Shown: positions 583 through 49,895, counted from the first letter of the stretch. The stretch: 64,000 nt of DNA from an uncultured Gemmatimonadales bacterium (GCA_963798845.1 CAWCUS010000006.1:32001-96000); one strand, 5' to 3'. Notes: a model not told the origin generated them from the letters alone. Numbers and translations are program-made.

Positions 583-2396
583 CCGACCGACGCCGCCGCG
601 GAGCGCGGCGCGAGCACCGGTCCGCTCAGGTGCTGGTGCACGAACTGCACGGCCATGGCGCCCTCTCCCACCGCCGACGCCACCCGCTTCACCGAGCGGT
701 GGCGGACGTCGCCGGCCACGAAGATCCCCGGCACGCTCGTCTCCAGCCAGAGCGGGTCCCTCGCCGCGCTCCACCCGGCCGGACGCTCGCTCCCCGCCAT
801 CACTTCCGGGCCCGACAGGATGAAGCCCCGCGCGTCCCTCCCCACCACGTCCCCCAGCCACTCGGTGCGCGGGACGGCGCCAATGAACACGAAGGCTGCG
901 TGCGCGGGGAGCGTCTCGCGCCCGGGCGGTTCGGCGCTCTCCACCACGATCCGCTCCAGCCGTGCCTCGCCTTCCATCTCAACGGCTTCCGCCCCGGTGC
1001 GGACTTCGATGTTCTCCGTCTCCTCGATCTGGGCGATGAGGTAGTGCGACATGGTGGTGGCGAGTGTCGGCCCGCGAACGAGGAGGGTCACCGAGCGGGC
1101 GAAGCGGGACAGGTACATGGCGCCCTGGCCGGCGCTGTTCCCCGCTCCGATCACGAATACATCCTCGCCCGTGGCCTCCATGGCTTCCGTGATCGCGGCA
1201 CCGTAGTAGACGCCGACTCCGGCCAGCCGATCCGCACCGGGCACCTTCAGCCGGCGGTACGACACCCCGGTCGCAACCAGCAGCGCCTGCCCCGTGATCT
1301 CCGCACCGTCGGCGAGAGAGACCACGGGGTAGCCGTCGTGCAGTCGCAGCCCGATCGCTTCCGCTGGCGTCAGGATCTCCGCCCCGAAGCGGCGAGCCTG
1401 GGCCACCGCCCGGCGCGCCAGGTCGCCGCCGCTCAGCCCCACCGGGAACCCGAGGTAGTTCTCGATCCGGGAGCTCTGGCCCGCCTGGCCGCCCGGCGCC
1501 TCGCGCTCGATGAGGAGCGTGCGCAGCCCTTCCGACGCGCCGTACACGCCCGCCGCCAGCCCCGCGGGCCCCGCCCCCACGATCACCAGGTCGTACGCAT
1601 CCGCCTGAGCCTGGAGGCGCAGCCCGATCCGCTCCGCGATGGCGGCGTTGTCGGGACGGCTCAAGTGGGACCCGTCCGGGAACACGACCAGGGGGAGGAC
1701 CGCGGCAGCGGCCGGAGAGGCGGCCTCGGCGATCCCGGCGGACTCGGCCGAGCCGGGCGAAGCGTCGCCGGCGGGGGAGGCGCCGTTCCCGCCCGCGCTG
1801 CGGGCGCTGGGCTCCGGGGCGTCGTCGCCCTGGGTCGCAAGTGCGAGCAGTCGCCGTGCGTCGTCACTCTCCTCCACGTCCAGCCACTGGTAGGGCGTCA
1901 GGTTGCGGGCAAGGAAGTCCTTGATGCGGTGGCCGTCGGCGGACCATTCGTGGCCCACCACGCGCACGCCTTCGAAAGGCGGCCGGAACCGGGCGCGCCA
2001 CGTGTCGAGCAGGTCCGTGAGGACTGGGTACAGGTGCTCCTCCGGCGGGTCCCACGGCTTCATCAGGTAGTGGTCGAGCCGGATCTCGTTGATGGCGCGG
2101 ATCGCCGCGTCGGTGTCCGCGTAGGCGGTCAGGAGCACCCGCTTCGCGTCGGGGAAGAGGAGCATGGCCTCCCGCAGCATTTCGACGCCGGTCATGCCCG
2201 GCATCCGCTGGTCAGCCAGGAAGAGCGCCACGGGCTCCTCCTTCAGCTTCAGCTCGCGGGCGGCTTCCAGCGCCTCCACCCCGGAGGTGGCGCGCAGGAT
2301 CCTGTAGCTGGAGCCGTACTCCCGGCGCAGGTCGCGAGCGATGGCGCTCAGCACCGCAGGCTCGTCGTCCACGGTAAAGATGATGGGCTTGGTCAT
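579..2396 (-). CDS. response-regulator receiver fused to glutaredoxin-like and thioredoxin-reductase-like FAD/NAD(P)H oxidoreductase
   Basis: REC motifs (VDDE, ADQRMPGMTG, MKPW); FAD motif IVGAGPAGLAA; SSRIENYLGFP; NAD(P) motif IGAGNSAG; ETSVPGIFVAGDV. Confidence 0.92.
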   Translation of the reverse strand: MTKPIIFTVDDEPAVLSAIARDLRREYGSSYRILRATSGVEALEAARELKLKEEPVALFLADQRMPGMTGVEMLREAMLLFPDAKRVLLTAYADTDAAIRAINEIRLDHYLMKPWDPPEEHLYPVLTDLLDTWRARFRPPFEGVRVVGHEWSADGHRIKDFLARNLTPYQWLDVEESDDARRLLALATQGDDAPEPSARSAGGNGASPAGDASPGSAESAGIAEAASPAAAAVLPLVVFPDGSHLSRPDNAAIAERIGLRLQAQADAYDLVIVGAGPAGLAAGVYGASEGLRTLLIEREAPGGQAGQSSRIENYLGFPVGLSGGDLARRAVAQARRFGAEILTPAEAIGLRLHDGYPVVSLADGAEITGQALLVATGVSYRRLKVPGADRLAGVGVYYGAAITEAMEATGEDVFVIGAGNSAGQGAMYLSRFARSVTLLVRGPTLATTMSHYLIAQIEETENIEVRTGAEAVEMEGEARLERIVVESAEPPGRETLPAHAAFVFIGAVPRTEWLGDVVGRDARGFILSGPEVMAGSERPAGWSAARDPLWLETSVPGIFVAGDVRHRSVKRVASAVGEGAMAVQFVHQHLSGPVLAPRSAAASVG

Positions 2397-2429
2397 TGAG
2401 AGTCGGGGTGCGGTTGTCGCGTCGGCGGC

Positions 2430-5400
2430 CTAGCCGGACGCTGCCGGCGCGAGGTTCAGGCGTGCACGGATCTCGGTCGCGCGCTGGCGCGCGCGCTCGG
2501 CGTCCGCAGCGCGGCCGGCCTTCTCGTGGATGCGGGCTTCCAGCTCCAGCGCCCTCGCCTCGTAGGGCGAGGTCCGGGACGCCCGGTAGTACTGCATGGC
2601 GGTGGTGAGGCTCTGCAGAGCCTCGTCCAGACGACCGGCGCGGTAGTGAGCCCGCGCCAGCCGCTCCGACGCCGTGGCGGCCGAGTACTCGTCGTGGTCC
2701 GAGATGGCGTCGGCGATCGCCTTCTCCAGCTCCGCGATCGCTTCAGCCGATCCCCTCTCCACGCCCACAGAGGCCGTCCCCACGTTGATCCGGCTGGCGT
2801 ACCCGCTCCACCCGGCCCAGTGGGCGGCGTCGAAGAAGGTGCGGGCCCGGTCGAAGCTCCCCAGCGCCTGATCCAGCTCCTTCTTCTCCAGCTCGCCCAT
2901 CCCCACCACGTAGAACCCGGCGCAGGCGCACTCGATGGCGTGCTTCGAGCTGGCCAGCTCGGCGCCGAGCCGGGCGTGCTCCAGTCCTTGCTCGATCTCC
3001 CCCAGCTCGTAAAAGGCGCTCCCCACGATCAGGTGCACGTCCGCCTCCTTCACGGGGTGCCCTCCGCTCGGCGCGGCCGCCAGCGCTTCCGCGATCCGCT
3101 CCCTCGCCTTCTCGAACTCGCCCACCCGGGCGTAGGCGACGGCGCTCGAGGCCAGCGCGTGCCCCTCGATCTCCGGCATGTCGAATTCGCGCGCCATCGT
3201 GATCACGTCCTCGAACTGCTTCACCGCCTTGCCGGGATCCCGATCCGCCAGCGTCTCGGTGGCGAAGAAGAACGGCAGGAGGAGCAGCTGCTCGAGCCCC
3301 AGCTCCGCCGCCAGCGACGCGCTCTCCTGGATGTAGGGCGCGGCCTGGGAGGGGACGCCCATGACCATGTAGATGAGCGAGATCCACGACAGGATCCGGG
3401 CGAGCCGCACTTTGTCGCCGATCTCGCGCGCCCGCTTCTCCGCTTGCAGGAGGCGGTCCACCACGCCGTCGTACCGGGCCAGCTTGTAGCGCACCACGGC
3501 CCACCCGACGATGGCATCCAGGAGATCCTCGGGCGGCGCGTCCGGGAGCCGCGCCATCGCTTCGAACGCCCGCTCGAAGTGCGTGCTCGCTTCGGAGAGC
3601 GCATAGAGTGAGACGGCGCTCCTGGCGGCCTGTGCGGCGTAGCTGGCCGTGCGTTCGGGGTCGTCGCCCTGCCAGAAGTGATACGCGAGCACCGGCGCCA
3701 CCTCCTCGAGCCGATCCGCGTACAGCTCCTCCAGCGCCAGCCCCGCCCTCGCGTGCAGCTCCCGCCGCCGCTGCTTGAGCAGCAGTCCGTACGCCGCCTC
3801 CTGCGTCAGGGCGTGCTTGAAAGTGTATTCCCGCTCCGGCTCCCTCGACCGCTCCCGCACCAGCTCCTCGTACGTCAGCGTGCCCAGGTGCGGGTCCACG
3901 TTCTCGATCCGCTCCGGCGGCGGCGCGGACCGGCAAACGGACGTCAGCGCGCGGTAGTAGAACGTGCGCCCCAGGACCGCCGCCGTCTGCGCCACCCGCT
4001 TCGTCGCCTCGGGAAGCCGGTCGATGCGCGCGCTGAGGACGCCCGCGAGCGTCTCCGGGATCGAGACCTCTGCGATCTCACGGGTCGCCCGCCAGTGGCC
4101 GTCGTCCCGGACCACGTGGCCGGAGTCGATGAGCGCCCGCAGCACTTCCTCGAGGAAGAACGGGTTGCCTTCCGAGCGCTTGAGGATCAGCGTCCGGACG
4201 CTCGCGGGAAGATCCTCGATGTGAAGCAGGTTCGACAGCAGCTCGCTCGCCCCCTGCCCGTCCAGCGGCTCGAGGTCCAGCCGCATGAACGACGACCCCA
4301 TGGTTCCCGCCAGCCGGTCCAGCAGAGCCCAGCTCGGCGCGGCACGGTCCGGGCGCAGAACGCAGAGCAGGAGGAGTGGCTCGGAGAACGCCATGGTCGC
4401 GACCTGCGCGATCAGCTCCAGCGATGCCGCGTCCGCCCAGTGCAGGTCGTCGAACACCAGCACGTGCGGGCGCACGGCATCCGCCGCCGCGCCGGGCTCG
4501 CCCGCCGGCCCACCCTCCCCCGCCCGCGCGTGCATCGCCGCGCGAAGCGCTCCGGTCACCGCCTCCGAGATCCGCTGGACCCGCGTCTCACCCTCCACCT
4601 CCCCCACCATCCGGCGGCTTTCGGCCGTCTCCACGGACAGCATCGTCTCGAAGACCGGCACGACCGCCGGGTCGAGTGAGAAGCGGTCCACGAACGACGC
4701 GATCTGTTCCCGGACCGCGGCCGGGCCGTCCGGCTCCCTGGCCCCGATCATCTCGCGCCCCAGCTGCCGCCACGGCTGGTACGCAAGCGAATCTCCGTAC
4801 GAGACCGCCCGCCCCTCGTACCACGAGACGCCCACGTCCAGCGCCTTCGCCCGCAGCTCCGCCACAAGGCGCGATTTCCCGATCCCCGCCTCTCCCACCA
4901 CCGCCACGACGCGGCCCTCTCCCGCACGCAATGCCGAAAGCGCTTCCTCGAGCCGCGTCACCTCCGCCTGCCGTCCGACCAGCGGCGACGCCAGTCCCTC
5001 CGTTTCCAGCCCGCGCGTCTTCCCCGGGGTCGCCTTCACGCCCACGACCGTGAACGTCTCGACCGCTTCCTGTTTCCCCTTCAGCGCCACTTCCCCGCGT
5101 GGCTCCAGCTCGAACAGCCCCCGCACCAGCCGGCGCGTGTCCCCGCTGATCAGAAGCGTTCCCGGCAACGCCAGCGACTGTAGCCGGGCGGCCACGTTCG
5201 CCGTGTCGCCCATCGCCGTGTACTCGGCCTTCACCTCGTCTCCCATGTACGCCAGCACCGAGGTCCCGGAGTTGATCCCCACCCGCACCTGGAACTCCAC
5301 GCCGTAGCGGCGCCCGACCGTCGCTCCGTACTCCGATGCCGACGCCAGCAGCGCCAGACCCGCGCGCACGGCACGCTCCGCGTCGTCCTCGTGAGCCAAC

Positions 5401-37265: not shown

Positions 37266-40200
37266 ATGCCACAACCTGAAACCGTGCCGGATTCGCCTCG
37301 GCCGGACGGCCCGCACGTCCGGCTGGTGGGAATCGGGGCCTCCGCGGGAGGGGTCCGGGCGCTGGGGGAGTTCTTCCGCGCCCTACCCGAGCGGCCGGGC
37401 ATGGCGTTCGTGGTGGTGATGCACCTCTCGCCCGAGCACGACAGCCAGCTCGCGGAGGTGCTCCAGAAGGATTCGAAGATCCCCGTCCGCCAGGTTCAGG
37501 GCCGCACCCGGCTCGAGCGGGATCACGTGTACGTCATTCCGCCGAACCGCAGCCTCGAGCTGACCGACGGCCATCTCGAGCTGTTCGAGTTCACCGAGCC
37601 GCGGGGGCACCGATCGCCCATCGACACCTTCTTCCGCGGGCTGGCTGCGGTCCACCCGGACGGAATCGGCATCCTGCTCTCCGGCTCGGGCACCGACGGG
37701 GTGGTCGGTCTCAAGGCGATCAAGGAGGGGGGCGGGATCATCCTGGCCCAGTCGCCGGAAGATGCCGAATACGACACGATGCCAAGGAGCGCCATCGCGA
37801 CGGGGCTGGTGGACTTCGTGCTGCCGGCGGGGAGGCTGGCCGGGAAGGTGCTGGAGATCCAATCGGCCAAGGCGGCCTGGCAGCTCCCGGACCCCGAAGG
37901 CCTTCAGGCGGATGAAGCGGAGGCGCTGCGCTCGATCCTGTCGCACCTCCAGGCCCGCACCGGCCGTGACTTCCGCGGCTACAAGAAGAGCACCGTGCTG
38001 CGACGGATCGGCCGTCGCATGCAGGTGCACGGAGCGGAGAACTTCGACCAGTACCTGGACGTGCTGCGGGCAAATCCCACCGAGCCGCGGGCGCTGCTGA
38101 AGGACCTCCTGATCAGCGTCACGACCTTCTTCCGGGATCCGGATGCGTTCGCGGCGCTCGAGAACACGGTCCTGCCTGCCCTCTTTCGTGGTGGGCAGCA
38201 TGCGCCGGAGGAGATCCGCGTGTGGGTGCCCGGCTGCGCCACGGGCGAGGAGGCCTACTCGCTGGCCATGCTCGTGGCGGAGCAGGCCGAGCGGCGGGGC
38301 GGCGGCGTGGAATTGCAGGTGTTCGCGTCGGATCTCGACGCCGATGCCCTCGCCTACGCCCGGGAAGGGCTGTACCCGGACGCCATCGCCGGCGACGTGG
38401 GCATGGATCGTCTGAGCCGCTTTTTCCGCCGAGAGGGCGCCTACTACCGGGTGCGCAACGAGCTCCGCGAGATCGTGCTCTTCGCCGAGCACGACCTGCT
38501 CCGGGACCCGCCGTTCTCGCGCCTCGACCTGCTCACCTGCCGGAACCTCCTGATCTACCTCGAGCGCGGCCTCCAGGAGCGGGTGGCGGAGGTCTTCCGC
38601 TATGCGCTCCGCGCTGGCGGGTTCCTGTTCCTGGGCAGCTCCGAGACGCCGCCGGACGACGGCGGCTTCCGGCCCGTCGACAAGCAGTACCGGATCTACC
38701 GGCGAATCGGCGCCGCGGAGCAGTCCGATCGGCTGCCGGCCATGCCCCTCCTTCCCGGGCCTCGACCGCGATCGCCAGGAGACCGGGTGCCACCCCTCTC
38801 TCCGCAGCAGGAGATCGCTGACGCCGCCATGCACCGCCAGGCCCTGGAGGCGCACGCGCCGCCGAGCGTTCTGGTGGACGCGGAGCACACCATTGTCCAT
38901 GTCTCTCCCCGCGCCCGCCGCTACCTCCAGTTCCCGGCTGGCAGCCCGTCGTCGAACCTCCTCAAGGTCGGTCGCCCGGAGCTGCGCTTCGAGCTCCGCA
39001 GCGTCCTGTACCACGCCCTGGAAAAGGAGGAGGCCGCGCGTTCCGGATGGGTGCCCGTGGAGATCGACGGCGAGGCGCGGCAGGTCCAGGTCCACGCGGC
39101 GCCCGCGCCCGTGGCCGATGACCTGCGCCTCGCCCTGGTGACGTTCCTCGAAGCGCCCGCCGAGGGGCGGGGAGAGGGAGAGGGAGAGGGAGAGGGGGAG
39201 GGGGAGGGGGAGGGGGAGGGGGACCGGGCGCGTGGGCGGGCAGAAGACGTGGCCGGCGCGTCACGGCGGCTGTCGGAGATGGAGGCGGAGCTCGAGAACT
39301 CCCGGACGCGCCTCCAGGAGATGGTGGAGACTTCGGAAACCCGTCAGGAGGAGCTTCGCGCCGCCAACGAGGAGCTCCAGTCCATCAACGAGGAATACAA
39401 GTCGACTCTGGAGGAGCTGGAGACGAGCCGGGAGGAGCTCCAATCGTCCAACGAGGAGCTTCGGACGGTGAACGAGGAGCTGAACCGGAAGGTCGCCGAG
39501 CTGGCCAACGCGAACGACGACCTCCGCAACCTCATGGCGGCGACGGAGGTGCCGACCCTGTTCGTGGACCGGTTGCTCCGCGTCCAGCGGTTCACCCCGG
39601 CGCTCCAGGACGTCTTCAACATCATGCCTGTGGACGAGGGGCGGCCGCTGGACCACCTGACCCACAAGCTCGACTACCCGCAGCTCCGCGAAGACTGCCT
39701 GAACGTGCTGAGCCGGCTCCAGCCGAAAGAGCGCGAGGTCGGCAGCGGCAGCGGCCAATCCTGGCTCGTGCGGCTCACGCCGTACCGCTCGGAGGAGGAC
39801 CGGATCGGGGGCGTGGTGATCACGTTCACCGATGTCACGCGCGTGCGGGAGGCACAGGTTTCGGTCCGCGAGAGCGAGGAGCGCTTCCGTGCGCTGGTGG
39901 AAGCGACCGCCGAGATCGTCTGGACAGCCGATCCCGAAGGCGTCGTGGTGCGGGACTCCCCCAGCTGGCGGGCGTTCACCGGGCAGGCCGTGGAGGACCG
40001 GCTGGAATGGGGCTGGCTCGACGTCGTCCACCCGGAGGAACGGGAGTCGGCCCGGGCCGCGTGGCAGCGAGCGGTCTCCGAAGGCCGTGCGCTGGACAGT
40101 GAGGTCCGCCTCTGGCACGCGCCCTCACAGAGCTGGCGGCTGACGGCGGTCCGGGCGGTTCCGGTCCTCGACTCCGACGGCCGGACCCGGGAGTGGGTGG

Positions 40201-40988
40201 GCATGAACACGGACATCACCGAGGAGCGGGAACGGCAGGAAGACCTCCGTCAGGCGAAAGCTGCCGCCGAGCGGGCGGCCGAGGTGAAGAGCCAGTTCCT
40301 GGCCACCATGAGCCACGAGCTCAGGACGCCGCTGACGGCGGTGATCGGGATGGCGGACCTCATGGAGACCGAGGTGGTCGGCCCCATGAACGAGACGCAG
40401 AAGAAACACCTCCAGCGCATGAAGAAGGCGGCCTGGCACCTGGTCAACATCATCGAGGAAGTGCTGGCCTTCTCCCGTTCGGAAGCCGGGCGAACGCAGC
40501 TCCATCGGACCACCATCGACCTCGCCGCCATCGCCAGAGAGGTCGTGGACGTGCTGGCGGTCGAAGCGGACGAGAAGGGGCTCCGGCTGAGGATCGAGGG
40601 GGCCGACCGTCCCGAGTTCCTGTTCGGCGACGGGGGCAAGGTCCGGCAGGTCGTCACCAACCTCGTCGGCAACGCCCTCAAGTTCACCGATGACGGTGAG
40701 GTCGTGGTCCGGATCGAGCTCCGGGACCGGGACGCCATCGCGCTGACGGTGGCGGACACCGGCCCCGGGATTCCGCCCGAGGTGCGAGAGGAGGTCTTCG
40801 AGCCTTTCCGGCAGGGTGACAACACCGCGACCCGTTCGAAGGGCGGCGTGGGTCTGGGACTGGCGGTGTCCCGCCGCCTCGCGCGCCTGATGGGCGGCGA
40901 CATCGAGCTGGAGAGCCTGCCGCGGGACGGCGCGACCTTCACGCTGACCCTGCCGCGCGAGCCGGACGTCGGCGGCGACCGGGAATAG
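37266..40988 (+). CDS. CheB-CheR-coiled-coil-PAS-HisKA hybrid kinase
   Basis: GIGASAGG, VVMHLS, SGSGTDG; GCATGEEAYS; EELQSINEE repeats; SHELRTPL; GVGLGL. Confidence 0.93.
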   Translation: MPQPETVPDSPRPDGPHVRLVGIGASAGGVRALGEFFRALPERPGMAFVVVMHLSPEHDSQLAEVLQKDSKIPVRQVQGRTRLERDHVYVIPPNRSLELTDGHLELFEFTEPRGHRSPIDTFFRGLAAVHPDGIGILLSGSGTDGVVGLKAIKEGGGIILAQSPEDAEYDTMPRSAIATGLVDFVLPAGRLAGKVLEIQSAKAAWQLPDPEGLQADEAEALRSILSHLQARTGRDFRGYKKSTVLRRIGRRMQVHGAENFDQYLDVLRANPTEPRALLKDLLISVTTFFRDPDAFAALENTVLPALFRGGQHAPEEIRVWVPGCATGEEAYSLAMLVAEQAERRGGGVELQVFASDLDADALAYAREGLYPDAIAGDVGMDRLSRFFRREGAYYRVRNELREIVLFAEHDLLRDPPFSRLDLLTCRNLLIYLERGLQERVAEVFRYALRAGGFLFLGSSETPPDDGGFRPVDKQYRIYRRIGAAEQSDRLPAMPLLPGPRPRSPGDRVPPLSPQQEIADAAMHRQALEAHAPPSVLVDAEHTIVHVSPRARRYLQFPAGSPSSNLLKVGRPELRFELRSVLYHALEKEEAARSGWVPVEIDGEARQVQVHAAPAPVADDLRLALVTFLEAPAEGRGEGEGEGEGEGEGEGEGDRARGRAEDVAGASRRLSEMEAELENSRTRLQEMVETSETRQEELRAANEELQSINEEYKSTLEELETSREELQSSNEELRTVNEELNRKVAELANANDDLRNLMAATEVPTLFVDRLLRVQRFTPALQDVFNIMPVDEGRPLDHLTHKLDYPQLREDCLNVLSRLQPKEREVGSGSGQSWLVRLTPYRSEEDRIGGVVITFTDVTRVREAQVSVRESEERFRALVEATAEIVWTADPEGVVVRDSPSWRAFTGQAVEDRLEWGWLDVVHPEERESARAAWQRAVSEGRALDSEVRLWHAPSQSWRLTAVRAVPVLDSDGRTREWVGMNTDITEERERQEDLRQAKAAAERAAEVKSQFLATMSHELRTPLTAVIGMADLMETEVVGPMNETQKKHLQRMKKAAWHLVNIIEEVLAFSRSEAGRTQLHRTTIDLAAIAREVVDVLAVEADEKGLRLRIEGADRPEFLFGDGGKVRQVVTNLVGNALKFTDDGEVVVRIELRDRDAIALTVADTGPGIPPEVREEVFEPFRQGDNTATRSKGGVGLGLAVSRRLARLMGGDIELESLPRDGATFTLTLPREPDVGGDRE
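39171..39218 (+). repeat. (GGAGAG)4(GGGGAG)4 microsatellite encoding (GE)8
   Basis: Read directly from the sequence; in frame within the hybrid kinase. Confidence 0.95.
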
Positions 40989-40998
40989 CCTCCGGATC

Positions 40999-41694
40999 GT
41001 GTCCACCATCACCTCCGACCTCTCGCCCGATCCGCAGCTCCAGGCACTGGCCCGCGAAGCACTGGCGCTGCTCAGAGATCATCTCCACGTCCGGCATTTC
41101 CGAAAGGGCAATCTGCTCTGGCGCGAGGGGGACACGTCCGGGATGCTGGTGTCCCTGCGCTCGGGGCGCGTGAAGATCTACCGGCGTCTGGGCGGCGATC
41201 GGGAAGCCACCCTCTTCCTCTTCGGGCCCGGCGACCTGTTCGGGTTCCTGCCGTTCATCGACGGTGAGGCGTATCCGGCCTCAGCCCGCGCCATGGACGA
41301 TGTGGAAGCGGACGTCATGGCCCGGTCCGCGCTCCTGGAAGTGCTGAGAGCGCAGCCGGAGCTGGGGATCACCCTCATCGGGCTCCTGGGCGGGCGCCTG
41401 CGTGCCTCCTTCGACCTGATTCGCTCGCTCTCGACCCCCAGCGCCCGCGTCCGGGTAGCGCGAGCGCTGCTCGAACAGATCCAGCATTCCACCTCAGGAT
41501 CGGCACACCCCCTCATCACGCTCCCCGTCTCCAACCAGGAGTTTGCCAGCGCACTGGGGATCGTGCCCGAGACTCTGTCCCGCACCCTGACCGGCCTGGT
41601 CGAGGGCGGCGTGCTGGAGCGCACAGGCTCCGGCGACTACCGGGTCCTGGACCTGGCCGGACTCACGCGCGCTTCCGAGCCTGCGGCGGAGTAG
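40999..41694 (+). CDS. Crp/Fnr family transcriptional regulator (Dnr/NnrR/HcpR-like)
   Basis: cNMP-like barrel (SGRVKIY…GPGDLFG…YPASA); HTH EFASALGIVPETLSR; no Cys. Confidence 0.88.
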   Translation: MSTITSDLSPDPQLQALAREALALLRDHLHVRHFRKGNLLWREGDTSGMLVSLRSGRVKIYRRLGGDREATLFLFGPGDLFGFLPFIDGEAYPASARAMDDVEADVMARSALLEVLRAQPELGITLIGLLGGRLRASFDLIRSLSTPSARVRVARALLEQIQHSTSGSAHPLITLPVSNQEFASALGIVPETLSRTLTGLVEGGVLERTGSGDYRVLDLAGLTRASEPAAE

Positions 41695-41697
41695 AGC

Positions 41698-41767
41698 CCG
41701 CCCGGCCAGTGCGCCGTGGGATGGCCGCCCGGCCAGGGCGCCGTGGCATGGCCACCCGGCTGCGCCG
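41698..41767 (+). repeat. 27-bp tandem repeat (2 full copies + degenerate partial)
   Basis: CCGCCCGGCCAGTGCGCCGTGGGATGG / CCGCCCGGCCAGGGCGCCGTGGCATGG / CCACCCGGCTGCGCCG. Confidence 0.8.
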
Positions 41768-41796
41768 CGAAGGGCCCCGGCCGCCACTCACCACGG

Positions 41797-41810
41797 TTGA
41801 TCCCGGTCAA
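41797..41810. promoter_or_regulatory. FNR-type binding box
   Basis: TTGAT-CCCG-GTCAA, one mismatch from TTGAT-N4-ATCAA, between the Crp/Fnr gene and the fmdE-like gene. Confidence 0.7.
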
Positions 41811-41934
41811 TGCGTGTCCGCCCCACGACCGCCAGGTTCGTGTGCACGGGCCGAGCGGCGGCCCGGCGGGAGCGACTCGCGTTGCGGGCGAGGCCCGCTT
41901 CCGTTGATCCGGAGGACGACGTGGAGGAGCGACA

Positions 41935-42552
41935 ATGGTGGATCCAGAGGAATATCTCGAAGCCGGACTGAAGCTGCACGGCCACAGGTGTCCGGCGATG
42001 CCCATGGGGCTGCGCGCGGCGGCCATTGCCATGAACCGGCTGGGTGTGGAGCGCTCGGGCGCCAAGACCCTGGTGGCACTGGTCGAGCTCGGCGACGGCC
42101 ACTGCGCGCATTGCTTCGGCGACGGCGTCCAGACCGTCTCGGGCTGCACGTTCGGAAAGGGCAACATACAGAAGCTGGGCTATGGCAAGTTCGGCCTCAC
42201 GCTCGTGGACAGGGAGACGGGACGCGCCGTCCGGGTCGTCCCCCGGGGAGAGGCGCAGATGCGGATGAAGCAGACTCCGTTCTTCAAGGAGTACCGGATG
42301 AAGGGGATCCCACCGACGGAAGTGCCGGAGGAAGTCGTGGACCCGCTCATCCGCAGGGTCCTGTCCGGCCCCGAGGACGAGATGTTCAAGGTGAGCGACG
42401 TCTTCACCCACGCGCTCGCGCCCCAGGAAGAGGACTTCGCCTCCTTCGTGTGCGAGCGGTGCGGTGACATGGTGGTGGAACGCTACGGCCGCGTGGTGGG
42501 AGAGGCCAAGGTGTGCATCCCCTGTCAGGAAGCCCTGCTGGCCGACAGGTAG
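41935..42552 (+). CDS. FmdE family protein with C-terminal DksA/TraR-type C4 zinc finger
   Basis: HGHRCPAMPMG, CFGDGVQTVSGCTFGKGN, GKFGLT, CERCGD…CIPC; GGAGGAG RBS. Confidence 0.9.
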   Translation: MVDPEEYLEAGLKLHGHRCPAMPMGLRAAAIAMNRLGVERSGAKTLVALVELGDGHCAHCFGDGVQTVSGCTFGKGNIQKLGYGKFGLTLVDRETGRAVRVVPRGEAQMRMKQTPFFKEYRMKGIPPTEVPEEVVDPLIRRVLSGPEDEMFKVSDVFTHALAPQEEDFASFVCERCGDMVVERYGRVVGEAKVCIPCQEALLADR

Positions 42553-42554
42553 CC

Positions 42555-43304
42555 ATGCTCCACGCATCGATCGCGGTGGCGTTTGTCGGCGCGTCGTTCC
42601 TGTTCTCGATGCTCGGCCTGGGCGGCGCGCTCGTCTACGTCCCCGTCCTGACGTGGGCCGGCTTCCCGGTCAGGGAGGTGGCCATTCCGCTGGCCCTCCT
42701 GCTCAACGGGCTCACCACCCTGATCGCGCTCGGGTCCTATGTCCACGCCAGGCTGGTCGACTGGAGGGGTGGACTCGGCATGACGGTTGGGGCATTCGCC
42801 TTCGCGCCGGTCGGGGCGTTCGCGTCCCGGGTCGTGCCCGTACGATTCCTGCTCGGCCTCTTCGCCATCGCCGTGCTGGTGGCGGCTTTCCGGATGCTCG
42901 CCATGTCCAGGACCCCCGAGCCCGGAGATCTCATGCCGTTGCGGAGGAGGCTGATCATCGGATCCGCCGTCGGGGTCTTCGCCGGGTTCATGGCGGGACT
43001 CCTCGGGATCGGCGGCGGCTTCATCATGTCTCCCCTTCTCATGTGGATGGGGTACGAGACGAAGCAGGCCGTGGCGACGTCTGCCCTGGCCGTGACCTTC
43101 TCGTCCTTCTCCGGGTTCGGCGGACACATCGCACAGGGGCACCTCGACCTGACGCTGACGGCGCTGCTGGCCTTCGCAGTGCTGATGGGCGCTTTCGCGG
43201 GAAGCCGATTCATGGTGACGAAGGCGAAATCGGCGAGGGTCAAGCAGGTGTTCGCCCTCGTGCTCTTCGCCATCGCCGCCAAGCTGCTGGTGGGGGTGCT
43301 CTGA
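42555..43304 (+). CDS. sulfite exporter TauE/SafE family permease
   Basis: SMLGLGGALVYVP and GLLGIGGGFIMSP duplicated motifs; 8 TM helices. Confidence 0.9.
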   Translation: MLHASIAVAFVGASFLFSMLGLGGALVYVPVLTWAGFPVREVAIPLALLLNGLTTLIALGSYVHARLVDWRGGLGMTVGAFAFAPVGAFASRVVPVRFLLGLFAIAVLVAAFRMLAMSRTPEPGDLMPLRRRLIIGSAVGVFAGFMAGLLGIGGGFIMSPLLMWMGYETKQAVATSALAVTFSSFSGFGGHIAQGHLDLTLTALLAFAVLMGAFAGSRFMVTKAKSARVKQVFALVLFAIAAKLLVGVL

Positions 43305-43370: not shown

Positions 43371-44486
43371 TCAGGACCCCGGCCTCAAGCCTGCCGGGAC
43401 GACGCAGTTCGACACCGACGCCAGCTCCGCCTCCGCCGCCGGGAAGTACTTCCGCCTCCACCACAACGCCACGTTGACCAGACCGATCAGGACCGGCACT
43501 TCCACGAGCGGGCCGATCACGGCCGCGAACGCGGCCCCGTGTGCGATCCCGAACGTGCCCACCGCCACCGCGATGGCCAGCTCGAAGTTGTTCGACGCGG
43601 CCGTGAACGACAGCGTGGCCGTCTGCGGGTACGTGGCGCCCACCGCCCGGCTCATGAAGAAGGTGACGGCGAACATGACCAGGAAATAGACGAGCAGCGG
43701 GATCGCCACCAGGACCACCTGCGACGGCTGCTCGACGATCGCGCGCCCCTGGATCGAGAACATCACCACGATCGTGAACAGCAGCGCCACCAGCGTTAGC
43801 GGGCTGATCTTCGGGACGAACCGCTCGTGGTACCACGTCTTTCCCCTGGCCTTCACCAGCGCGAATCGCGTCAGCATGCCGGCCAGGAACGGGATGCCGA
43901 GGTAGACGAACACGCTCTCCGCGATGCGCCCCATGGTGATGTCCACCACCGTCCGCTCGAGCCCCAGCCACCCCGGAACGACGGTGATGAAGGCCCACGC
44001 ATAGACCGAGTAGAACAGCACCTGGAAGATCGAGTTGAAGGCGACGAGCCCCGCGGCGTACTCGTTGTCCCCCTCCGCCAGCTCGTTCCAGACGATCACC
44101 ATGGCGATGCAGCGCGCCAGCCCGATCAGGATCAGGCCGACCATCAGCTCCGGGTGGTGGCGCAGGAAGAGCACGGCCAGGCCGAACATGAGCAGCGGAC
44201 CGATGATCCAGTTCTGGACCAGCGAAAGGCCCAGCACCTTCCAGTCCCGGAAGACGTCGCCGAGCTCCTCGTAGCGCACCTTGGCAAGCGGCGGGTACAT
44301 CATGAGGATGAGCCCCGCGGCGATGGGGATCGAGGTCGTCCCGACCTGCGTCGCCTGGTTGATCGCCGTCACCGGCTCAGGCCACAGGTATCCGAGCCCC
44401 ACGCCCACCCCCATCGCCAGGCCGATCCATGCCGTCAGGTACCGGTCCAGGAACGACATCCGCCGCCCGACACCGCCCGCGGTCAT
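43371..44486 (-). CDS. acr3: ACR3 arsenite efflux transporter
   Basis: [59 protein letters not shown] coupling. Confidence 0.95.
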
Positions 44487-45256
44487 CCGGTGTCCGCCGT
44501 CCGCGTGGTCGGCATCCCGCCCGTCTCCAGGTACACGGCGAACTCGTCCGGAAGCTCGCTCTCGCCGATCGCCGCCATCGTCCGCTCCAGCTCGTACTCG
44601 ACGCGGACGAACTCGACCCCCACCCGTTCGCCGTCCAGCTCCACCAGCACGTAGCCCGCGCGCCAGTCGCCGTCCTTCGGCCGCCCGACGGACCCCGTGT
44701 TCACGAGATGGATCCCGTCCACCGTCCGCGTCCATGGCCTGTGCGTGTGACCGAACGCCACCACATCGCCCGCCCTGGCGCCGAGCTGCTCCGCCATCTG
44801 CCGGCAGAACCTGTCCGAACGATCTTCGGTCCAGTAGACCGTGTTCAGCACCGGGTTGCCGTGCACCAGGATGAGCCGGGGCCCGGCGACATGGCCGCCC
44901 AGCGGCCGGATGTCGATGCGGAACGGCAGGCTCCCCAGCCAGCGCTTCGTACCGGCGGTCACGTTGGCGCGAGTCCACGCGTAGCTGAGATGGCTCAGCG
45001 CCTCCTGCCGCGCGTCTTCATACCTGCATCCGCAGTGCTCGTAGTCGGTGGCCGTGGTCGAGTCGTAGTTCCCGGCCACGCCGGGGATGGCCCGATCGCG
45101 GAGCGCCGCCACCACCTCCTCCGGCCATGGCGCGTATCCCACCAGGTCGCCGAGGTGGTAGACGCCGGTCAGGTCGCTCCGGGAGTCAATGTCGGCCAGC
45201 ACCGCCTCCAGGGCGGGCAGGTTCCCGTGGATGTCGCTGATGAGCGCGTACTTCAT
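44483..45256 (-). CDS. ars-operon metallophosphoesterase (YfcE/MJ0912-like)
   Basis: SDIHGN, LGDLVGY, GNYD, VHGNP, GHTH, NTGSVG; coupled by ATGA to both neighbours. Confidence 0.9.
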
Positions 45257-45768
45257 GGCGCACCTCGCAGTGTCGTCGCCCGGCCGCTGCCGGGCACCGG
45301 ATCGAGGACCATCGCGACCGCCGAAGCCGGGCACGCTTCCCGGAACTCCACGGACTGCTGAACGTCCGGCGGTGCCGCGCTTCGTTCGATCCGACGGAAG
45401 CCGAACCGGGGGAAGTACTCCTCCGCCGTGGTCGTCAGGAGGTACAGGCGACGGAGCCCCCCCTCGCGCGCACCCGCCAGAGCCCTTCTCGTCAGCTCGC
45501 CGCCCAGGCCGGTCCCCCGACGCCCCGCCACCACCGCCACGGAGCGCAGCACCCCGTCCCGGCCGTGTGTCTCGACCCCCGCGACGCCCAGCAGCGCCTC
45601 GCCCTCCTCCGCCACGACGAAACCGGGCAGGTGCTCGGCCACCCCCGCCCCAGGCAAGCTGGCACCCTCGAGGAGCCCCAGGACCGCCGGGAGGTCAGAA
45701 TCCCTCGCCGGCCGGAGCACCACCCCGTCCGACTCGCCCGGCGTCGCTCTCGCCACAGTCTCAGCCAC
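45253..45768 (-). CDS. arsN2: arsenic-resistance GNAT N-acetyltransferase, ArsN2-like
   Basis: LRSVAV…RGTGLG, LYLLTTTAEEYF…GF, EFREACPASA; GTG start overlapping the arsM stop. Confidence 0.85.
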   Translation of the reverse strand: MAETVARATPGESDGVVLRPARDSDLPAVLGLLEGASLPGAGVAEHLPGFVVAEEGEALLGVAGVETHGRDGVLRSVAVVAGRRGTGLGGELTRRALAGAREGGLRRLYLLTTTAEEYFPRFGFRRIERSAAPPDVQQSVEFREACPASAVAMVLDPVPGSGRATTLRGAP

Positions 45769-46675
45769 AGCAGCCGGGCCCGCAGCAGGGCTCCTCCACG
45801 GCGGCCACGGCGGCTCCCGCCGGCGACGGCTCAGCGGCCGCCGCCGGTTTCCTGGCCCGCACGAACGCCGACAGGATCCGCCCGCGCACCGCCTCCGCCA
45901 TGGCGCCCACATCCAAACCCGCCTCCTCCAGGAACGAGCGCGCATCCTCCGGCTCGTACACCCGCGTCGGCTCCAGCGAAGGAGCCTCGAACCCGACATC
46001 CCGGAGCAGCTTTTCGAACTCGTCCATGTCCAGCGCCCCCGCGACACAGCCGACCCACAGCGCCATGCTCTTCCGCACCTCCGCCGGGATCTCCCCACGC
46101 GTCACCACGTCCGACACCGCGAAGCGGCCGCCCGGCTTCAGCACCCGGTATGCCTCGCCCAGGACCTTCCGCTTGTCCGCCGACAGGTTGATCACGCAGT
46201 TGCTGATGATCACGTCCACCGACGCGTCCGGCAGCGGGATGGTCTCGATGTCGCCCCTCAGGAACTCCACGTTCGTCGCCCCCGCCTCCGCCGCGTTCCG
46301 CCGCGCCAGCGCCAGCATCTCGTCCGTCATGTCCAGCCCGTACGCTCTCCCCGTCGGGCCCACCCGCTTCGCGCTCAGCAGGACGTCGATTCCACCCCCG
46401 CTCCCCAGGTCGAGCACCACCTCTCCCGCCTTCAGCTCCGCCAGCGCCGTCGGATTCCCGCACCCCAGTGATGCCAGCACAGCCGCTTCCGGCAGCGACG
46501 AAGCCGTCACCGCGTCGTACAGGTCTCGCGTGATCGGGTCCCTGAACCCCCCGTCCGCCTTCGTCTCCCCGCACCCGCACTTCGTCCCGCAGCACGTCGA
46601 TGGCTCGCCGCTCACCACCCGCAGCGCCGCCTCCCCGTACTTCTGCCGCACCACCGACTTCACGTCCCCGCTCAT
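45761..46675 (-). CDS. arsM: arsenite S-adenosylmethionine methyltransferase
   Basis: SLGCGNP, VLDLGSGGGID, IISNCVINLS, LWVGCVAG; Cys-rich termini. Confidence 0.95.
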   Translation of the reverse strand: MSGDVKSVVRQKYGEAALRVVSGEPSTCCGTKCGCGETKADGGFRDPITRDLYDAVTASSLPEAAVLASLGCGNPTALAELKAGEVVLDLGSGGGIDVLLSAKRVGPTGRAYGLDMTDEMLALARRNAAEAGATNVEFLRGDIETIPLPDASVDVIISNCVINLSADKRKVLGEAYRVLKPGGRFAVSDVVTRGEIPAEVRKSMALWVGCVAGALDMDEFEKLLRDVGFEAPSLEPTRVYEPEDARSFLEEAGLDVGAMAEAVRGRILSAFVRARKPAAAAEPSPAGAAVAAVEEPCCGPGCCG

Positions 46676-46689
46676 GTCATCCTCCGGCG

Positions 46690-46705
46690 ATCAACATCGA
46701 TTGAT
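46690..46705. promoter_or_regulatory. ArsR-type operator between arsR and arsM
   Basis: Perfect ATCAA-CATCGA-TTGAT, next to an A7/T7 run at 46716-46722. Confidence 0.75.
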
Positions 46706-46756
46706 GCTTTGGCCCAAAAAAACTCCGCACTCGCGGCCCACCCCACGAACACCTGG

Positions 46757-47086
46757 TCAGCCACAGCAGTCCCCACGCCGCGCCACCGGCAGCCAACCCG
46801 ACTCCGGCTTCACCTCGCCCAGGAACGACCTCATCTCCTCCAGCGCCTCCGGGACGAGTGAATAGTACACCCACCGGCCGTCCCGCCGGTCCGACACCAC
46901 CCCGGCATCCTTCAGCTTCTTCAGGTGGAAGGACAGCCGCGACTGTGCCGCCCCCATCTCGTCCTGGAGCTCACAAACGCACCGCTCTCCCCCGGTCAGC
47001 AGCTGGATCACCCTGAACCGGGTCTCCTCCGCCACGGCCTGGAAGCGCTGCAGCAGCGCCTCGTTCTGCACGGTCTGGTTCGTCAT
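46757..47086 (-). CDS. arsR: ArsR/SmtB transcriptional repressor
   Basis: GERCVCEL As-binding box, QSRLSFHLKKLKDAG HTH, RDGRWVYY, C-terminal CCG. Confidence 0.93.
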   Translation of the reverse strand: MTNQTVQNEALLQRFQAVAEETRFRVIQLLTGGERCVCELQDEMGAAQSRLSFHLKKLKDAGVVSDRRDGRWVYYSLVPEALEEMRSFLGEVKPESGWLPVARRGDCCG

Positions 47087-47092
47087 GGCCCA

Positions 47093-47122
47093 ACGATACA
47101 TCAACATCCATAGATACGTCAA
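47093..47122 (-). promoter_or_regulatory. arsR promoter with embedded operator
   Basis: Minus strand TTGACG-N18-TATCGT, 6 nt before ATG; ATCAA-CATCCA-TAGAT (47100-47115) lies in the spacer. Confidence 0.75.
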
Positions 47123-47236: not shown

Positions 47237-47689
47237 ATGAAGATCTGGATCGACGCGGACGCCGCCCCGAAGGACGTGAAGGAGATCGTCTTCCGGGCCT
47301 CGGCCCGACTGGAGCTCGCGGCCGCGCTGGTTGCGAACCGTCGGCTCTCCACGCCGGCCGACAACCCGCTCATCGAGTCAGTGATCGTGCCGGGCGGGCC
47401 CGATGTGGCCGACCAGCACATCATCGATCACGCCCGGGAGGGCGACCTGGCGATCACTTCCGACATCCCGCTGGCCGCGGCACTCGTGGAGAAGGGGGTC
47501 CTCGTTCTGGACCCGCGGGGCGAGCGGTACACCGAGGCGAACGTCCGCGAGCGCCTGTCCATCCGGGACTTCATGGACTCGCTCCGGAGCAGCGGCGTAG
47601 ACACGGGCGGGCCGAAGCCGTACGGCAAGCAGGAGAAACAGGGCTTCGCCAACGCGCTGGACCGGCTGCTGACGAGACACCTGGGGTAG
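47237..47689 (+). CDS. yaiI: YaiI/YqxD (UPF0178) family protein
   Basis: MKIWIDADAAP, DVAD, ITSDIPLA, LDPRGE, FANALDR. Confidence 0.9.
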   Translation: MKIWIDADAAPKDVKEIVFRASARLELAAALVANRRLSTPADNPLIESVIVPGGPDVADQHIIDHAREGDLAITSDIPLAAALVEKGVLVLDPRGERYTEANVRERLSIRDFMDSLRSSGVDTGGPKPYGKQEKQGFANALDRLLTRHLG

Positions 47690-48389: not shown

Positions 48390-49895
48390 TCAGGTCGTGA
48401 CCTCCTTGGTGACGGCTTCCGCCACCGCCGCTTCCTCCCACGGTCCTTCGCTCACGGCTGACAGCTTCTTCATCGTCGGGATCACCGCGGCGGCGATCAG
48501 CGTTCCGGCCACGGCCACGATACCCAGCCTGGTGAAGAGGCTGGTGTAGAGCGGGAGCGTGGCGACCGGATCGGTCACGTTCTGGGGCACGCTGGCGAAG
48601 GTGGCGACGTAGCTCCCCACGTACTGCGAGATCCCGGTGGCGAGGAACCAGACGCCCATGATGAACCCGCGCAGCGACGGTCCGACGTAGCGCGCCACGA
48701 CTGCGAGGCCGAGGCCGCTGATGAGGAGCTCTCCCAGCGACTGGAATCCGTAGCCGGTGATCATCCACCAGAACGAGACCTTGCCGGCGCTGGCGAAGTG
48801 ACCGCTGAAGCCGTAGGTGAAGAACCCGAGGCTCAGTACCGCGAAGCCCATGGCGAACTTCGTGGAGATGTGGAAGTCCCCGCCTTTGCCCTTCCCGAGG
48901 TGCGTATAGAGCCAGGCGAGACCCGGGCTCAGGACGAAGACCCAGATCGGGTTCAGCGCCTGGACCTGCCCCGCGGGGACGTGGTACCCGAACAAGCCGA
49001 GGTCGACGTTCCGGAGCGAGAAGAGCGTGAGCGAGGTCGACATCTGCTGGTAGAAGATGAAGAACAGCATGCCCAGCCCGGTCAGGATCAGCACGGCGAT
49101 GAGACCCTTTCGCTCGCGCTCGCTGCCCCGTCGCATCATGATTCCGAAGATGCCGAGCATCGTGAAGAACCCGAGGATGACGGTGCCCCGAGCAACGGTG
49201 CGGTTCTGGACGATGAACGTCACGAGAACGATGCCGACGGCGATCCCGATGAGGACCTGAACGAGGCGCTTCACGTCGAGGGGCCGGAAGTCGGGCTCGG
49301 AGCCCACGTGCCGGAGGTACCGGCTCATGGCGAAGTAGTTGAGGATGCCGACGACGAGCCCGCCCGCGGAGACTGCGAACGCAGCGTGCCACCCGAACCT
49401 GATCGCGATGAGCGGCGTCGCGATCTGCGATGCGGTCGCACCGATGTTGACGGCCATGTAGTACATGGTGAACGCGCTGTCGATCTTCGCGGGATCTCCC
49501 TCGTAGAGCTTGGAGATCATGTTGGCGGGATTCGCCTTGAAGATGCCGCCGCCGACCGCCACGAGCGCCAGCGCCGGGAAGAGAAGGCCCGGATGATCCG
49601 GAATCGCGAGCCCGATGTATCCCAGGGCGAGGATCAGCGCGCCGAGGACCATGGTGCGGCGGCTCCCGAGGAGCTTGTCGCCGATCCAGCCGCCGAGCGC
49701 CGGAACGGTGTAGGCGAGCGCCGCGAACGCGCCGAACGTGAGGGTGGCGCGGTCGTCGGTGTACCCGAGCTTCTGCACCATGAAGAGCACGACGACGGCC
49801 GTCATGCCGTAGTAGCCGAACCTCTCCCAGAGCTCGATGAGGAAGAGGGTGGTGAATCCCTTGGTTCGCGAAGGCGTCAGCGCCTGGGTCGTCAT
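48390..49895 (-). CDS. proton-dependent oligopeptide (POT/PTR) transporter
   Basis: ELWERFGYYG signature, YYMAVNIG, QALNP, GELLISGLG. Confidence 0.93.
   Translation of the reverse strand: MTTQALTPSRTKGFTTLFLIELWERFGYYGMTAVVVLFMVQKLGYTDDRATLTFGAFAALAYTVPALGGWIGDKLLGSRRTMVLGALILALGYIGLAIPDHPGLLFPALALVAVGGGIFKANPANMISKLYEGDPAKIDSAFTMYYMAVNIGATASQIATPLIAIRFGWHAAFAVSAGGLVVGILNYFAMSRYLRHVGSEPDFRPLDVKRLVQVLIGIAVGIVLVTFIVQNRTVARGTVILGFFTMLGIFGIMMRRGSERERKGLIAVLILTGLGMLFFIFYQQMSTSLTLFSLRNVDLGLFGYHVPAGQVQALNPIWVFVLSPGLAWLYTHLGKGKGGDFHISTKFAMGFAVLSLGFFTYGFSGHFASAGKVSFWWMITGYGFQSLGELLISGLGLAVVARYVGPSLRGFIMGVWFLATGISQYVGSYVATFASVPQNVTDPVATLPLYTSLFTRLGIVAVAGTLIAAAVIPTMKKLSAVSEGPWEEAAVAEAVTKEVTT

Follow-up and report, generated by a model that had tools for sequence, protein, structure and literature searches.

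The window analysed here is a 64 kb stretch of DNA (C6:32001-96000) from an uncultured Gemmatimonadales bacterium, whose genome of 4.26 Mb in 6 contigs is 96.28% complete. At 43371-47122 on the minus strand, the window carries five tightly packed genes in the order arsR, arsM, arsN2, a metallophosphoesterase (MPE) gene and acr3, and we show here that this locus is a genuine five-gene arsenic-resistance operon. Each of these five minus-strand genes has a product that exceeds the cut-off of a family model. ArsR (46757-47086, 109 amino acids (aa)) reaches 96 bits on NF033788 (cut-off 55), ArsM (45761-46675, 304 aa) 350.7 bits on NF008823 (cut-off 263) and ArsN2 (45253-45768, 171 aa) 148.2 bits on NF040501 (cut-off 125). 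The MPE (44483-45256, 257 aa) is recognized by PF12850 (72.1 bits, cut-off 27) and by TIGR00040 (58 bits, cut-off 56.25), and the As(III) efflux permease Acr3 (43371-44486, 371 aa) by TIGR00832 (442 bits, cut-off 282.8). The junction of arsM and arsN2 reads GTGGCTGA, and two ATGA junctions follow further along the operon, all of them read in the sequence. The ATGA between arsN2 and the MPE gene is the sole junction fixed by homologues, because the first methionine of the MPE is invariant. For arsN2, other in-frame GTG starts lie further in and the NF040501 match begins at residue 25; for acr3, the ATG at 44459 is another possible start and the TIGR00832 match begins at residue 10. These alternative starts would replace overlaps by gaps of 2-40 nt, and the packing is tight either way. 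A preliminary description of this DNA had placed four tightly coupled genes downstream of arsR here, and this is borne out by the family models and the junction strings. A tblastn search with the five operon proteins found no second ars locus in the organism's own genome, in which the MPE gene is single-copy.

By its domain the MPE is a calcineurin-like metallophosphoesterase that is also recognized by PF00149 (47.5 bits). Its NCBIfam matches are YfcE-type phosphodiesterase models only, neither NCBIfam nor Pfam offers a more specific name, and RefSeq labels its relatives "metallophosphoesterase family protein". The dimetal motifs DxH, GD, GNxD, H and GHxH are intact, with Tyr64 at the position of the histidine in GNH(D/E), and D8, H10, D37, N63, H132, H170 and H172 are invariant in 34/34 aligned sequences, 21 of which are representative rows picked for having CGC. 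Ten residues past the GNYD metal motif sits Cys75-Gly-Cys77. Both cysteines and all dimetal ligands are invariant in the 7/7 proteins of an alignment covering four phyla and spanning Gemmatimonadota, Rubrobacter, Adhaeribacter and Paraclostridium. Such a pair has been described in Car1, an MPE-type arsenate reductase of Rufibacter tibetensis, where Cys74 and Cys76 are "essential to the reductase activity" according to the available part of a 2025 paper (PMC12124457, citing Shen et al., 2024, Mol Microbiol 122:201). The same part of that paper reports an ars-operon MPE that is about 40% identical to Car1 and keeps Cys74/Cys76, and function was transferred there at this level of identity (PMC12124457). 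R. tibetensis is absent from our genome scan, which was seeded with the Adhaeribacter protein, and Rufibacter sediminis serves as a stand-in: the window MPE is 42% identical to the homologue of this congener (E 4e-66), and its C75/C77 align with C74/C76 of that protein. The calcineurin-like domain and the Cys-Gly-Cys at the equivalent position are thus common to Car1 and the window MPE, and both genes belong to ars operons under ArsR, with acr3 as a neighbor. The host phylum is different, Gemmatimonadota here and Bacteroidota for Car1, and the window MPE has no ArsC-like neighbor, whereas R. sediminis has one.

The MPE family is large, with at least 553 relatives confirmed and at least 7997 of 8000 scored candidates at E <= 1e-10. 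C-x-C is carried by 51 of 83 full-length sequences (73 of the 83 being 50%-identity representatives). On the tree this label is clustered, requiring 12 changes compared to 25.7 in shuffles, with 0/500 shuffles as low, and the window MPE falls within a 14-member clade in which all proteins have C-x-C (SH-aLRT 98). Among solved structures, 3rqz_A is the best sequence match (E 5.5e-21) but is without the cysteine pair, and no solved structure of the MPE subfamily turned up by sequence. Car1 is said to be coupled to thioredoxin and to form a disulfide, and reportedly retains weak phosphatase activity. The genome studied here encodes TrxB (378 bits, cut-off 343) and three thioredoxins. The MPE is most likely a Car1-type arsenate reductase, and its coupling to thioredoxin is plausible by homology.

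The preliminary description had noted that the operon and the window lack an arsenate reductase. For canonical arsC this observation holds and can be extended to the whole genome: none was found in window or genome with PF03960, TIGR00014 and the ArsC models, the respiratory reductase Arr and the arsenite oxidase Aio not having been searched for. PF03960 yields 0 matches in the 4.26 Mb, and TIGR00014 nothing at E <= 1e-10. With PF01451 three low-molecular-weight phosphatase (LMWP) paralogues are recovered, all outside the window; two of them reach 22.5 and 40.7 bits on the thioredoxin-type ArsC model (cut-off 174.3), and the third has no reported match. The 40.7-bit paralogue scores higher on the tyrosine-phosphatase model (47.6 bits) and adjoins a TsaC/YwlC-like gene, as judged by reading its translation. 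In functional terms, the absence of a reductase from the operon is most likely wrong, because the MPE has the cysteine pair and homology of the Car1 family, pairs with Acr3 or MIP exits and is anticorrelated with ArsC-like genes. The operon would only appear reductase-less because its reductase belongs to this phosphoesterase-type family.

The anticorrelation was seen in a sample of 251 Gemmatimonadota genomes, each at least 90% complete, in which MPEs at E <= 1e-55 were counted as Car1-like and TIGR02691 matches at E <= 1e-15 as ArsC-like; 0/134 of the latter lie above the strict TIGR02691 cut-off. Among the 64 genomes with a Car1-like MPE, 10 have an ArsC-like gene and 54 have none, compared to 124 with and 63 without among the 187 genomes that lack the MPE. 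The odds ratio is 0.094 with a Fisher p of 1e-12, a significance that is overstated because related genomes are treated as independent. Car1-like MPE and ArsC-like genes hence tend to exclude each other across the phylum. Glutaredoxin-type ArsC is rare (11/251 genomes, one match above cut-off). The tallies include four genomes that are flagged unpublished, G053 (MPE, arsM), G178 (ArsC-like, ArsN2, arsM), G153 (ArsN2, arsM) and G093 (arsM), and the conclusions are independent of them.

The genomic context of the MPE was surveyed in the 80 closest loci (67-83% identity) among the relatives listed, almost all of them from Gemmatimonadota metagenome-assembled genomes. Same-strand ars genes lie within four genes of the MPE in at least 66 of these loci. 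The neighbors include arsR in at least 46, arsM in at least 38, acr3 in at least 30, a MIP channel in at least 15 and arsN2 in at least 14 loci, these counts being lower bounds because the gene caller missed some genes, for example in L008. The exact gene set of the window recurs in L009, L013 and L038, and an annotated Adhaeribacter radiodurans plasmid has the same five genes with arsN2 and arsM swapped (arsR-arsN2-arsM-MPE-acr3). A conserved linkage of arsN2 and the MPE to ars genes was a point on which the preliminary description made its reading depend, and the neighborhood surveys find it strong for both. In 15 loci (L031, L036, L042, L045, L050, L053, L054, L059, L061, L062, L064, L068, L070, L073 and L081) a MIP channel gene lies directly downstream of the MPE gene, often as arsR-MPE-MIP without arsM and arsN2, and arsR-MPE-acr3 is also seen without these two genes. 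At its simplest, arsenate resistance works in this way, by a reductase with an As(III) exit behind it. The ArsC cut-off was reached by 0/106 unlabelled MPE neighbors, with one weak score of 79.6 bits.

Some individual loci and open reading frames are of separate interest. MIP and MPE are fused in the open reading frames P0276 and P0277, P0245 being a weak case, and P0202 (413 aa) joins a Cys-rich DUF2703 domain to a C-K-C MPE. Three related loci, L033, L035 and L069, encode small proteins with a CC/Se motif (NF041239) beside ars genes. In R. sediminis (L089), a DUF6428 protein is encoded at 3013-3480 between arsR and the ArsC-like gene, upstream of the Car1-like MPE, and a MerA-like gene lies further upstream in the ars cluster. 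L050 carries pstB, pstB and phoU (2000-4385) directly upstream of arsN2-MPE-MIP, an arrangement that ties phosphate/arsenate uptake control to the reductase module.

The reading that we consider probable is that of a complete, ArsR-controlled operon for inorganic-arsenic detoxification, in which the Car1-type MPE takes the role of arsenate reductase in place of ArsC. Reductase activity, electron donor and sequence of steps are those expected from the homology with Car1. Arsenate would enter the cell through phosphate transporters and bind to the binuclear metal site of the MPE, where Cys75 and Cys77 would reduce As(V), yielding As(III) and a disulfide that thioredoxin might re-reduce. As(III) would be exported by Acr3 and in part methylated by ArsM. 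As(III), and possibly methylarsenite (MAs(III)), would also detach ArsR from its operators (ATCAA-N6-TTGAT) in the arsR promoter and before arsM.

Such a scheme shares regulator, exporter and overall detoxification logic with the classical arsRBC or arsR-arsC-acr3 operons, whose ArsC is of the LMWP or glutaredoxin type; in contrast, the predicted reductase in the window has another fold, and arsM and arsN2 are additional. The arsR-aqpS-arsC-arsH operon of Sinorhizobium meliloti combines a reductase with an As(III) exit channel. Many of the Gemmatimonadota relatives (arsR-MPE-MIP) are alike in that a reductase is followed by an As(III) exit channel, the difference being that their reductase would be an MPE instead of ArsC, while the window uses Acr3 and not a MIP channel. 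A further parallel is Orf1 of the arsR-orf1-arsM operons in Paraclostridium/Terrisporobacter, a Cys-pair MPE encoded directly beside arsM and downstream of arsR, for which the available part of the source proposes that As(V) reduction feeds methylation (PMC12124457). We find the order arsR-MPE-arsM on a Paraclostridium bifermentans plasmid. Orf1 differs from the window MPE in that the identity is 37%, and those operons are without arsN2 and do not have acr3 in the same place.

ArsM is an As(III) S-adenosylmethionine methyltransferase by its NF008823 match. Aligned to the solved ArsM structure 5evj, it conserves the cysteines of GCGNP, SNCVINL and GCVAGAL, that is, the three As-binding cysteines, and an N-terminal cysteine cluster is present outside the 5evj alignment. 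Acr3 is of the canonical type. ArsN2 belongs to the GNAT acetyltransferases and, by its NF040501 score, to the ArsN2 family; its Cys146, in an EFReACPASA stretch, is near-invariant. In the operon it is predicted to be an accessory acetyltransferase. The available part of the paper that defines the ArsN2 clade studies only ArsN1, which acetylates arsinothricin (PMC6465285), and in the texts covered by a full-text literature search for "ArsN2" the family is defined and no biochemical characterization was found. ArsN2 is encoded in 94 of the 251 Gemmatimonadota genomes, at 96 places. At 31 of these places it lies directly upstream of a reductase gene (within 150 nt on the same strand; 11 MPE and 20 ArsC-like), and at 0/96 directly downstream of one. 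The arsM gene is directly upstream of arsN2 at 52 or more of the 96 places, with 150 of 221 arsM matches covered. Twenty of the 52 ArsN2 places without a reductase nearby were sampled; arsR-arsM-arsN2 operons make up about 8 of these and solitary arsN2 genes about 9; a role of ArsN2 as a reductase-specific accessory is weakened by these cases. A metagenomic protein of 416 aa, P0043, is an in-frame fusion of ArsN2 (154.7 bits) and a Car1-like MPE part sharing 82% identity with the window MPE. This fusion occurs in one cluster only and an assembly or frameshift artefact is possible. Because ArsN2 precedes a reductase gene and never follows one, often follows arsM, is fused to an MPE in one metagenomic protein and has a near-invariant cysteine, one may tentatively ask whether it is the fixed middle member of an arsM-arsN2-arsenate reductase module that works with either reductase type, instead of a free-standing resistance gene. 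We hold this to be rather doubtful. Speculatively, ArsN2 might, with acetyl-CoA, activate or capture an arsenic species on its way between reduction and methylation, such as an acyl-arsenate or an amino-arsenical, or it might acetylate a partner enzyme.

Other explanations of the operon have to be weighed against a detoxification operon with an MPE-type reductase. The preliminary description had suggested that its enzymes form an organoarsenical pathway, in which ArsM, ArsN2 and the MPE would carry out methylation, N-acetylation and ester hydrolysis and Acr3 or another exit would remove the product. The frequent adjacency of arsM and arsN2, the operons consisting of arsR-arsM-arsN2 alone, the P0043 fusion and the activity of the related ArsN1 on arsinothricin (available part of PMC6465285) are in line with this idea. 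However, the MPE is found without arsM and arsN2 as arsR-MPE-MIP or arsR-MPE-acr3, arsN2 is near the MPE in only 14/80 loci (a lower-bound count), the MPE has the Car1 reductase cysteines, and the operon contains no radical-SAM or other gene for carbon-arsenic bond formation. We therefore regard a single pathway of this kind as quite unlikely; a metallohydrolase step in an uncharacterized organoarsenic pathway is mostly unsupported and, with a Car1-like MPE, not needed. Organoarsenical chemistry keeps some room only for the arsM-arsN2 pair. The MPE could also be a true hydrolase, cleaving esters or anhydrides of arsenate (ADP-arsenate or arseno-sugar phosphates, for instance) or serving as a phosphatase during arsenate stress, As(V) being reduced by an unidentified or non-specific route. 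Every phosphoesterase metal ligand is intact, as expected for a hydrolase, and ArsC-like genes adjoin or are fused to the MPE in several lineages. Such a function is nevertheless improbable, given that homologues from other phyla, at up to 42% identity, retain the cysteine pair, that the MPE pairs with As(III) exits and is anticorrelated with ArsC-like genes in Gemmatimonadota, and that PF03960, PF01451 and the ArsC models revealed no other candidate reductase in the genome. A canonical ArsC might lie in the unassembled 4% of the genome or be too divergent for detection, which would make the MPE redundant. The completeness of 96.28% in 6 contigs and the 40.7 bits of one LMWP paralogue on the ArsC model leave space for such an enzyme, but this paralogue scores higher on the tyrosine-phosphatase model and adjoins the TsaC/YwlC-like gene, and 54/64 genomes with the MPE are likewise without an ArsC-like gene. 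A hidden ArsC is thus very improbable.

Several observations count against the MPE as the arsenate reductase that replaces ArsC. The 42% identity was obtained with the homologue of a congener and not with Car1 itself, and it is distant for a transfer of function. The C-x-C MPEs do not form a single clade in the tree, since their monophyly is marginally rejected (p-AU 0.026) and supported branches force at least five changes. ArsC-like genes adjoin the MPE gene in R. sediminis (156.9 bits), on a plasmid of Rubrobacter and, according to the available part of a 2022 paper, in Deinococcus indicus (PMC9807832); there the function of the MPE was called unknown, and every assayed ars-cluster gene, the MPE gene included, was stated to be induced by arsenate and arsenite (PMC9807832). 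MPE and LMWPc are fused in the open reading frames P0275 and P0278. Since the MPE can stand beside or be fused to an ArsC-like protein, the two reductase types are not strictly interchangeable everywhere, and as 10/64 MPE genomes also have an ArsC-like gene, their jobs may be non-identical. The overstated significance of the co-occurrence analysis belongs here as well.

Regulation of the operon can be approached from the region upstream of arsR. The preliminary description had let the operon end at 47122; genes and junctions stand, but the in-frame TTG at this position is probably not the arsR start, as the starts of homologous ArsRs correspond to the ATG at 47086. This TTG coincides with a promoter-like TTGACG-18-TATCGT on the minus strand (47093-47122; a consensus match only, with one found compared to a mean of 0.2 in shuffles) and is more likely the -35 box of this site. 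A promoter so close to arsR would leave the arsR mRNA with almost no leader. A putative ArsR operator, ATCTATGGATGTTGAT (47100-47115, minus strand), lies between its -35 and -10 boxes, and a second one, ATCAATCGATGTTGAT (46690-46705, minus strand), is found directly upstream of the arsM ribosome-binding site. Across the 64 kb, where 0 copies would be expected, the 16-nt motif has only these two, the pattern having been derived from the two sites themselves. It is built on the inverted repeat ATCAA-N6-TTGAT, and ATCNA-N6-TNGAT is present upstream of arsR in 26/34 related loci (background 0.09 per kb), usually 20-30 nt before the called arsR start. ArsR itself is an ArsR/SmtB repressor with an HTH_5 domain, whose DNA-binding region contains Cys36-Val-Cys38 and whose C-terminus carries a Cys-Cys; 13/13 aligned ArsRs have C36 and C38, and the C-terminal pair is usual. 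ArsR most likely controls the operon via this conserved predicted operator, as the preliminary description had assumed, and the score above cut-off, the retained CxC and the motif in 26/34 loci sustain that view. Between arsR and arsM a terminator-like hairpin is seen on the minus strand (46717-46752), with a 10-pair stem followed by GGAGTTTTTT; with two such sites in the region and 1.2 expected, the evidence is weak. It may act as an attenuator or mark where an arsR transcript ends.

In most other respects the operon is ordinary and follows the classical ars scheme with a reductase of the already described Car1 kind. Its useful yield lies in an annotation gap, in the near-exclusive occurrence of Car1-like MPE and ArsC-like genes and in the fixed order of arsM, arsN2 and reductase. 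As the MPE has no specific NCBIfam or Pfam name, surveys based on arsC counts would class this genome as one that cannot reduce arsenate, and 54 of the 251 high-quality Gemmatimonadota genomes, with the MPE and without an ArsC-like gene, would be classed alike. Recognition of Car1-type reductases alters estimates of which soil bacteria mobilize arsenic. Since Car1-type MPE genes adjoin arsM, they also bear on which bacteria methylate arsenate-derived arsenic. Holding one operon and no canonical reductase, the locus offers an uncomplicated natural setting in which to test what ArsN2 does.

Around the operon, the window contains genes that are not part of it. Plus-strand genes at 40999-43304 encode a regulator of the Crp/Fnr type, an FmdE-domain protein that has a C4 zinc finger, and a TauE/SafE permease; these genes converge on the 3' end of acr3 and lie outside the ars operon. 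On the other side, a DUF188 (YaiI/YqxD) gene (47237-47689, plus strand) is divergent from arsR, and beyond it a POT-family peptide transporter is encoded at 48390-49895 on the minus strand. Further away, at 37266-40988 on the plus strand, lies the gene for a 1240-aa protein in which CheB/CheR-like, PAS and histidine-kinase segments were recognized by eye from the translation, and which contains a GEGEGEGEGEGEGEGD repeat linker.

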